A stretch of DNA of 64,000 bases from an uncultured Chloroflexia bacterium (lineage in GTDB: Bacteria > Chloroflexota > Limnocylindria > Limnocylindrales > CSP1-4): positions 231,440 through 295,439 of the forward strand of contig CAVYIM010000009.1 in NCBI GenBank assembly GCA_963768655.1. The letters are read 5' to 3'. Each line of letters opens with the position of its first letter. Positions within the stretch are counted from its first letter, which is position 1. The notes under the pieces were generated by a model. The model was not told where the DNA came from, did no database searches, and saw only the letters and a list, made by a program, of their open reading frames with translations. The position numbers were made by a program, and so were the translations under genes. Positions 3,493 to 3,756 of this stretch are shown piece by piece.

Positions 3493-3530
3493 AGAAACAA
3501 AGAACCGCGGCTCCTGTCTGGAGTCCGCGG
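3493..3530 (-). terminator. Intrinsic terminator (attenuator) upstream of metY
   Basis: Minus strand reads CCGCGG-A-CTCC-AGACA-GGAG-CCGCGG followed by TTCTTTGTTTCT. Confidence 0.8.
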
Positions 3531-3576
3531 CCCCGGGACCGATCCTCAGCTCAGTGGCGCGTCCAACGCCGGAGCC

Positions 3577-3687
3577 TCAGACCCCGTCCTCCGCACTTCG
3601 GGGCCGCCCGGGCATGGACATCATGGAACCGCGCAGGCACGAGGCCTGGCGCGAGTTCTCCCGGTGGCGCGAAGTGCGGGCGTTCAT
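3577..3687 (-). CDS. Putative 36-aa leader peptide MNARTSRHRENSRQASCLRGSMMSMPGRPRSAEDGV
   Basis: ATG at 3687, TGA at 3579-3577; ATG-ATG-TCC-ATG at 3624-3613; -10-like TATGCT just upstream; terminator 47 nt downstream of the stop. Confidence 0.65.
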   Translation of the reverse strand: MNARTSRHRENSRQASCLRGSMMSMPGRPRSAEDGV

Positions 3688-3756
3688 TGGCCGCGAAGCA
3701 TAGGGGCTCCGCGGCCAATTGCGCAAGCTGTTCGGTTGCGAGCGCCGCGCCGCGGT

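Follow-up and report, generated by a model that had tools for sequence, protein, structure and literature searches.

The subject of this study is the leader of the metY gene in a 64,000-nucleotide (nt) stretch of DNA from an uncultured Chloroflexia bacterium of the Limnocylindrales (GenBank assembly GCA_963768655.1, contig CAVYIM010000009.1; hereafter the window). An earlier reading of the letters alone, which we call the original prediction, had proposed a methionine-sensing leader-peptide attenuator here, upstream of metY and metX. On the minus strand, to which the features of the locus belong, a gap of 376 nt separates the end of a gene for a MacB/FtsX-type permease (3757) from the start of metY (3380). 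The metY gene (2043-3380, with a GTG start at 3380) codes for a member of the O-acetylhomoserine (OAH)/O-acetylserine (OAS) sulfhydrylase family (Pfam PF01053) and scores 672 bits against the NCBIfam model TIGR01326, the cut-off of which is 495. It is followed by the gene of a metX-like homoserine O-acyltransferase (754-2040; PF00561), for which the best NCBIfam model is TIGR01392 (MetX) with 286 bits, under the cut-off of 500. Joint control by methionine and cysteine would fit this setting, as the MetY family includes bifunctional OAH/OAS sulfhydrylases.

The gap contains a short upstream open reading frame (uORF) that extends from an ATG at 3687-3685 to a TGA at 3579-3577. Direct reading and translation of 3577-3687 give 36 codons, MNARTSRHRENSRQASCLRGSMMSMPGRPRSAEDGV, and reproduce the predicted frame exactly, with its Cys17 and with the candidate control codons ATG ATG TCC ATG for Met22, Met23, Ser24 and Met25 (3613-3624), the methionines of which are conserved among 162 distinct leaders.

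Two hexamers upstream of the uORF are putative promoter elements. The -35-like TTGCGC (3721-3726) lies within a block, CTTGCGCA, that is conserved in 30 leaders of the genus, and the -10-like TATGCT (3697-3702) follows 18 nt past it and 9 nt before the uORF ATG, giving the order TTGCGC-18-TATGCT-9-ATG. Elsewhere the -10-like box takes the form TACACT or CAnnAT. Among 103 leaders of other genera the -35-like box has the consensus TTGACG, and the start position (12 codons upstream) is GTG in 58 and ATG in 45, constantly 9 nt past the CAnnAT box. A Shine-Dalgarno sequence is absent before the uORF. From the constant 9-nt gap we infer that the leader mRNA is probably leaderless or nearly so, with a 5' untranslated region of a few nt. 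A consensus promoter scan called no promoter-like site in 3200-3900. In genera outside that of the window a further motif, GGTTGCG(A/T)TTCGG, stands about 15-30 nt upstream of TTGACG (loci L049, L050, L052, L053, L056, L057 and others), and a second family has CGCAACCGAATCGCAATCGTTGACA; the motif may serve as a binding site for a transcription factor or as part of an upstream promoter.

Methionine and cysteine codons of the leader frame

The frame is retained in all 30 loci of the genus that were retrieved, its changes of length being whole codons (+2, +5 and +7), and its control motif there is M-M-x-M in 28, M-F-V-M in one and M-M-C-T-C-M in one. Other genera and the second family have shorter homologues of the uORF, with 23-26 codons; the typical form in other genera, of about 23 codons, is (M/V)THTQVSWNMCMRWRPRRAEDGV. 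The codons were counted in the 162 leaders that remain when two spurious pattern matches are taken from 164 distinct sequences. Within the 12 codons before a conserved RNA anchor, 436 ATG triplets fall in the frame of the uORF, none in frame +1 and four in frame +2. Methionine occupies codon -1 in 155 of these leaders and codon -3 in 154, and the 12-codon zone holds two to seven methionines in 156 and at least one cysteine in 126, with the stop codon at its canonical place in 142. The codon between the two methionines is TGT in 103 leaders, TGC in seven and TCC in 25, while ten other codons account for the rest; thus, the ATGs are held and the middle codon drifts, with cysteine being kept through synonymous change. 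Individual lineages have expanded the zone to four to seven methionines and up to three cysteines, as in MRMAMGMQMMQM, MDMWMCLSMCMCRM, MPCAMCPCMGM, CACMEGMMRICM and MAAMCMAM.

Codons 2-9 vary equally at all three positions, with no third-position bias. The amino-acid sequence itself is therefore not what has been conserved, which would be expected if the frame is regulatory rather than the gene of a protein. Searches with uORF peptides gave no NCBIfam match at E up to 10 (four peptides) and no Pfam match up to 0.01 (two peptides). The conserved frame and the alternation of start codons make the uORF a candidate for translation. The Met codons are its most conserved coding feature, being frame-specific and prone to expansion, and cysteine is the usual middle residue, so that both the proposed Met-codon attenuator and the possible sensing of cysteine that had been suggested with it gain comparative support.

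The 3' end of the frame permits another interpretation, namely an arrest peptide, of which TnaC with tryptophan and the plant CGS1 peptide with S-adenosylmethionine (SAM) are models. According to this, the conserved C-terminus, ...RPR(R/S)AEDGV-stop, would arrest or park the ribosome at the stop codon on a small-molecule cue, aided by the Shine-Dalgarno-like GGAGGA. The sequence RPRR.EDG is indeed common to two families, and GGAGGA is invariant even in the second of them, where its pairing partner UCC is absent as judged by eye; moreover, a ribosome parked at a stop codon that lies, as described below, inside the antiterminator stem would favor the terminator. Nevertheless, we regard an arrest peptide as improbable: the synonymous positions are conserved too, mostly as pairing would explain, the uORFs of the second family end in LED(C/S/R/N/A)A rather than AEDGV, and the multiplication of Met and Cys codons would be left unexplained. 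A variant in a third family also speaks against it, if only from two genomes. This variant, found in two of 92 genomes, both of one genus, lies upstream of a metY ortholog and comprises a -10-like box that precedes the ATG by 7 nt, the uORFs MTHRRCACRMAMPQRGRSVSPP and ...CRVCSMGMPPREGG, and a terminator. In both genomes a 1-nt indel shifts the frame past M-x-M-P and alters what is encoded downstream, while the C.C.M.M-P codons and the RNA sequence stay; few as they are, these sequences point to retention of the Cys and Met codons and of the RNA, but not of the C-terminal peptide.

Terminator and competing antiterminator

Downstream of the uORF lies an intrinsic terminator (3493-3530), in which a stem of 3530-3520 with 3514-3505, interrupted by one bulged A, closes a loop at 3519-3515 and is followed by a U-rich tail at 3504-3493. 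The GC stem and U-rich tract that had been described at this place are therefore present, and they are conserved: in a 150-sequence family alignment 98.1% of the cells are paired, and four pairs have changed on both sides, one of them being GC in 90 sequences and AU in 58. The terminator arms of the second family, compared by eye, have another sequence and are complementary all the same. A simple terminator scan overlooked this hairpin, probably owing to the bulge.

The strand that competes for the terminator begins just 3' of the Met codons. It is GCGGCCCCG (3599-3607), which spans uORF codons 27-30 and is invariant in the 150 aligned leaders, and it pairs with CGGGGCCGC (3527-3535), which in the window overlaps the 5' arm of the terminator by 4 nt (3530-3527). 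This outer helix of 9 bp (3607-3599 with 3535-3527), identical in the second family by eye, has 99.6% of its cells paired and a duplex energy of -20.7 kcal/mol. The common variants of CGGGGCCGC are solely C to U (27, 6 and 5 sequences), all preserving the pairing as G-U, and they are compensated within the terminator (UA in 10, UG in 17). The helix is continued by an inner stem (3536-3589) made of GGAC 3589-3586 with GUCC 3539-3536, GGUCU 3583-3579 with GGAUC 3545-3541, and a hairpin, H2, of 3576-3570 with 3553-3548, so that the stop codon of the uORF sits inside the antiterminator stem. Six pairs of the inner helices 3 and 4 have changed on both sides, and the complete stem, which was first chosen by RNAalifold on 30 leaders of the genus and then scored on the family alignment, is 97.8% paired. 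The conserved internal Met codons and covarying stems for which an alignment upstream of metY was to be inspected are both found.

This helix differs from the antiterminator of the original prediction, which paired 3582-3568 with 3531-3516 (-15.2 kcal/mol). In the genus that pairing is present in 78.4% of the cells, and in only 43.1% for the part in the terminator loop, with 140 of 500 shuffles reaching as much; its core is 68.1% paired across the family, a value attained by 114 of 500 shuffles. Being no better than shuffles, it was rejected as a conserved feature. A 10-bp repeat (3679-3670 with 3600-3591) said to bracket the control codons is perfect in the window (-17.1 kcal/mol) but not conserved: in 30 sequences of the genus 66.7% of the cells are paired, 374 of 500 shuffles do as well and the full closing pair occurs in two of 30, so that the repeat, too, was rejected as a conserved feature. 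What holds of the earlier scheme is thus the uORF, its codons, the terminator and the idea of an attenuator, while the antiterminator as drawn and the bracketing repeat fall away.

Other structural elements are more restricted or less clear. A hairpin inside the uORF, H1 (3626-3658; 3658-3645 with 3637-3626), is specific to the genus, having been found by RNAalifold in 30 sequences at alignment columns 36-49 and 78-89, and insertions fall in its loop. In three loci (L025, L029 and L046) a small extra stem-loop of the type GAGCGAAAG...CUUUCGC occupies this H1 loop, adding whole codons (+5 and +7 in L025 and L029), and the same type of stem-loop stands in the terminator loop in five others (L009, L010, L028, L187 and L227); it looks like a recurrent hairpin insertion in different species. 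Past the terminator a further conserved block, UUUCUCCGG..ACG.CGG..GCCGCC (3465-3504), is visible by eye in the alignments; in the window and in loci L002-L120 it reads UUUC(C)UCCG and then ACG.CGGG...CCGCC. By eye, its CUCC or CCUCC could base-pair with GGAGG, which is invariant in the uORF, GCCGCC is able to pair with GGCGGC of the antiterminator strand and, in the window, UUUCUCCGG (3501-3493) could pair with the metY ribosome-binding region CCGGAGGAA (3393-3385). Such pairings, predicted as they are, may constitute a second, translational layer of control.

So structured a leader could also be a riboswitch of a new kind, in which an aptamer for SAM, S-adenosylhomocysteine, methionine, homocysteine or another sulfur metabolite would be formed by the long stem 3607-3527 and the conserved loop inside it, ligand binding would decide between this stem and the terminator, and the reading frame would be incidental. 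Genes of the metY type are typical riboswitch targets in other phyla. The 376-nt leader is far more structured than its shuffles (z = -4.6), all three codon positions are nearly invariant between the last Met codon and the stop, also in the unpaired GGAGGA, and the niche is open, since neither SAM-I nor SAM-IV has a match anywhere in the genome of the window, which is 88.6% complete. Against this, an element made of RNA only needs no ATGs restricted to one frame, no alternation of TGT with TGC or of ATG with GTG at a fixed start beside a -10-like box, and neither whole-codon indels nor lineage-specific multiplication of Met and Cys codons; furthermore, two positions of the internal loop are variable, and codon 19 encodes A, T, V, S or M as a result. 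Nor does a known family account for the leader, in keeping with the remark in the original prediction that SAM-I and T-box signatures are lacking: searched against Rfam 15, which includes SAM-I, SAM-II, SAM-IV and T-box, it has no match at the gathering score and three chance-level matches at E up to 10, and ten leaders of other genera have none. We therefore hold a riboswitch to be unlikely. The sole Rfam match in the window at the gathering score is a tRNA gene (55833-55905, plus strand, 72.8 bits).

A candidate attenuator sensing methionine and cysteine

Examples of leader-peptide attenuation exist for Trp, His, Leu, Thr, Ile/Val and Phe, and in a translational form for Cys in mycobacteria. 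The classical leader-peptide transcription attenuators are those of trp, his, leu, thr, ilv and pheA in Proteobacteria and of trp in Corynebacterium and Streptomyces. In the usual view, the control of methionine genes is the province of SAM riboswitches, T-boxes and protein repressors; upstream of genes of the metY/metX type, for example, Actinobacteria have SAM-IV and Firmicutes have SAM-I (S-box). A full-text literature search found no Met-codon attenuator, subscription papers and supplements outside its reach being sources that may bear on novelty.

In the metY leader we find a short 5' ORF, a cluster of Met codons, an intrinsic terminator and a predicted, mutually exclusive antiterminator next to the control codons, which are sequence features expected of an attenuator. 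On these comparative grounds we propose, with a probability of roughly 0.7, that the leader controls the metY(-metX) operon by ribosome-mediated transcription attenuation and senses the charging of Met-tRNA and Cys-tRNA. The sensor would be the translation of Met codons, joined by Cys codons in most relatives, in a very short uORF right behind the promoter. When both tRNAs are charged, the ribosome would pass codons 26-36 to the stop codon inside the antiterminator stem; the running ribosome would keep the GCGGCCCCG strand unavailable, the terminator would form and transcription would end before metY. When charging is low, the ribosome would wait while a Met or Cys codon occupies its A site, its front edge reaching the start of GCGGCCCCG or slightly beyond; the antiterminator would then form once CGGGGCCGC has been made, the terminator would be blocked and metY would be transcribed. 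In the least certain step, that without a ribosome, the antiterminator is predicted at or near the minimum free energy (MFE) of the nascent RNA, and failed initiation for want of fMet-tRNA may also give read-through; if so, the usual objection to the sensing of methionine by a leader peptide would fall.

Folding models give a mixed picture of this scheme. The first base of the antiterminator strand lies 14-17 nt past the first Met of M-x-M and 8 nt past the last. Nascent transcripts of 169 leaders, cut before the 3' arm of the terminator and folded with 12 nt masked downstream of the A site, contain the antiterminator within the MFE structure in 168 cases when the A site is on the first Met, and in none when the antiterminator strand itself is masked. 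The fold with an enforced antiterminator equals the MFE in 66 of the 169 and comes within 1 kcal/mol of it in 87, the gap having a median of 0.9 and a maximum of 12.8 kcal/mol. Equilibrium folding of full leaders was possible for 156 of 174, in the other 18 of which the patterns found no 3' strand or U tract; among these 156, placing a ribosome on the last Met leaves the terminator as the MFE structure in 136, and placing it at the stop codon does so in 131.

Several observations weigh against the proposed attenuator. When the last Met is in the A site and the same 12-nt front edge is assumed, the MFE structure of the nascent RNA contains the antiterminator in only nine of 169 leaders, so that the outcome, compared with that for the first Met, depends on the footprint that is assumed; with no ribosome the number is 70 of 169. 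Of the 156 full leaders folded at equilibrium, 144 adopt the terminator when free and 127 still do so when a ribosome sits on the first Met; most form it whatever is masked. Equilibrium folding by itself thus fails to reproduce the switch, which would have to be a kinetic one, like that of known attenuators. The control codons are few beside those of classical attenuators, just two or three and non-consecutive; seven of the 162 leaders have no Met at -1, and one of the leaders (L097) has Cys but no Met at all in the control zone. Conservation in the 3' half of the uORF extends to every codon position, which is also compatible with a ligand-binding RNA, and the strands of the 9-bp helix are near-invariant, so that the helix is supported by pairing and wobble-compatible change, with zero compensatory change. 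Since this DNA is rich in G+C and frame +2 is just as open as that of the uORF, each having a stop in one of the 162 leaders, the openness of the frame was dropped as a sign of coding. Finally, the leader sequences share ancestry, such that the counts overstate their independence, and the support as a whole is comparative and in silico.

A more specific version may be put forward tentatively, as a design that is on by default and consists of three segments. Translation would be needed for termination, and shortage of fMet-tRNA, of elongator Met-tRNA or of Cys-tRNA (through a stall at M-C-M) would all lead to read-through; the invariant GGAGGA inside the uORF, which stands 5 nt ahead of the last sense codon, would keep the terminating ribosome over the antiterminator strand until the terminator has formed. 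This would be the first methionine-sensing leader-peptide attenuator, although we consider this version in full doubtful.

What is new here looks like a methionine-sensing version of the trp-type attenuator, a class of mechanism that is itself known. Like the classical attenuators, the leader would combine a short ORF bearing codons for the end product, an intrinsic terminator, an exclusive antiterminator that starts just 3' of the control codons and a stop codon so placed that a non-stalled ribosome masks the antiterminator. It differs from them in its amino acid, Met together with Cys, in a small cluster of interleaved M-x-M rather than a run as in his and leu, in the lack of a Shine-Dalgarno sequence, with a start about 9 nt past a -10-like box, in the lack of a clear conserved 1:2 anti-antiterminator and in its host, a member of the Chloroflexota (Limnocylindria). 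With SAM riboswitches it shares target genes and premature termination before a methionine biosynthesis operon, whereas its signal would be tRNA charging read by the ribosome and not SAM, and it has no Rfam match. With T-box leaders it shares the sensing of tRNA charging and the choice between terminator and antiterminator; in contrast to these, sensing would pass through the ribosome and not through direct binding of tRNA, and the metY leader has no T-box match.

If the proposal is true, a Met/Cys-codon attenuator fills the methionine gap in leader-peptide attenuation and shows how a ribosome-based sensor copes with methionine as both an initiator and an elongator amino acid. It would likewise extend leaderless regulatory uORFs from Actinobacteria to Chloroflexota, here an abundant uncultured lineage of soil and peat. 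The element is compact, at about 200 nt, which would suit coupled in vitro systems, and its relatives offer a natural series of variants with two to seven Met codons, with and without Cys.

The mechanism of leader-peptide attenuation is summarized in two studies (bioRxiv 10.1101/834739 and PMC1262725), and the latter, a survey, states that upstream of the methionine operons of Actinobacteria conserved RNA structures were not seen. The nearest parallel, as described by Canestrari et al. (bioRxiv 10.1101/834739), is that of the polycysteine leaderless small ORFs upstream of sulfur amino-acid genes in mycobacteria, where ribosomes waiting at Cys codons relieve repression. A short ORF upstream of sulfur amino-acid genes is common to both systems, leaderless in mycobacteria and probably so here. 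In their account the mycobacterial ORFs have at least two consecutive Cys codons and no Met, and act translationally through a freed Shine-Dalgarno sequence. The metY leader, by contrast, usually has a single Cys flanked by Met (up to three Cys in some lineages), and its terminator and antiterminator would make control transcriptional. No sequence similarity between the two was noted, without a formal search, and pairing with the metY ribosome-binding site was viewed by eye in the window only.

Spread across Limnocylindria

Of 36 other genomes of the genus, 35 keep the leader DNA; the core, which reaches from the Met codons through the terminator, is present in 171 of the family's 301 genomes and in 34 of its 49 genera. 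A class-wide pattern search detected it in 75 of 137 genomes of the first family and in 24 of 153 of the second, where all 13 loci retrieved carry the uORF MYPDHHVPHYTTMCMPWRPRRLEDCA or near variants with metY downstream. These tallies include a few genomes flagged as unpublished, on none of which the sequence claims rest. A sister family with genomes of about 1.1 Mb has the leader in none of 24 genomes by search with the leader DNA and in none of 16 by pattern search; this goes with a missing metY ortholog, as four of its genomes, when searched, contained only distant MetY paralogs of 40-42% identity. In a third family the pattern search gave one-mismatch matches in five of 92 genomes, which look random, and three of four metY orthologs there follow metX and are not comparable. 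The matching contigs are assigned to Chloroflexota (Candidatus Limnocylindria/Limnocylindrales) and are mostly metagenome-assembled genomes from soil, fen and palsa. The exact motif also occurs on five contigs (L153, L158, L174, L175 and L178) labeled Gemmatimonadaceae, Verrucomicrobiia, Thermoanaerobaculia or Anaerolineaceae; as their uORFs are of the ordinary family type, mis-binning or an error of labeling is likelier than transfer.

The gene directly downstream of the leader is metY in 29 of the 30 loci of the genus, the remaining one stopping at a contig end, and metY is the first downstream ORF in 80 of 94 loci of the first family. Most of the others among the 94 have a gene for an OsmC-like (PF02566) or a beta-carbonic-anhydrase-like (PF00484) protein and then metY. 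The OsmC-like gene stands between leader and metY in L060, L073 and L081 and the carbonic-anhydrase-like gene in L059 and L076; in L071 and L084 an OsmC-like gene follows the leader with no metY within the stretch retrieved, and in L119 the gene is that of a PALP enzyme. These OsmC-like and carbonic-anhydrase-like genes may belong to the same sulfur amino-acid regulon. Some genomes have two copies of the leader.

In three families the orientation of the leader is constant, always directly upstream of metY or of an operon that contains it. This bears on the suggestion that the leader is an independent small transcript, either a small RNA or a small-protein gene whose Met/Cys-rich peptide has another role, with metY transcribed from a separate promoter in the spacer of about 110 nt. 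The terminator is strong, being the MFE structure in most leaders, there are further conserved blocks in the spacer past it, and RNA-library contigs of relatives lie mainly over the leader core, though this last is a weak point. On the other hand, the orientation is constant, the conserved helix that excludes the terminator would be purposeless, the N-terminus of the peptide is free of protein-like constraint and the spacer lies within the region where no promoter-like site was called. We consider an independent transcript very unlikely.

The RNA-library contigs come from a comparison, at a likeness of at least 85%, with four wetland metatranscriptome runs from four studies, all of them RNA runs; no run contains more than 0.23 of the sampled words. 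Two contigs of relatives cover the leader core, one of 164 nt over 3487-3648 (X15) and one of 183 nt over 3477-3647 (X18), and a third (X17) joins 3382 to 3477, the uncovered 3396-3457 being a non-conserved spacer. The ends of these contigs differ, and they are silent on transcription start, termination or read-through.

The genome of the window was also scanned for terminators associated with uORFs rich in one amino acid; this gave Trp-rich matches inside coding regions and none near trpE, which lends no support, and the finder missed the metY leader as well. A T-box-like leader with a terminator lies upstream of a trpE-like gene in the same genome (G000:C5:495568-495877, minus strand, locus L267). 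It scores 53.5 bits (E 8.8e-11), under the gathering score of 93, and is preceded by TTGACA-N18-TAGACT; two weaker T-box-like matches lie at C7:239039-239285 and C5:25695-25815. On account of the leader before the trpE-like gene, the lineage appears to use control of the T-box type for tryptophan but a uORF for methionine.

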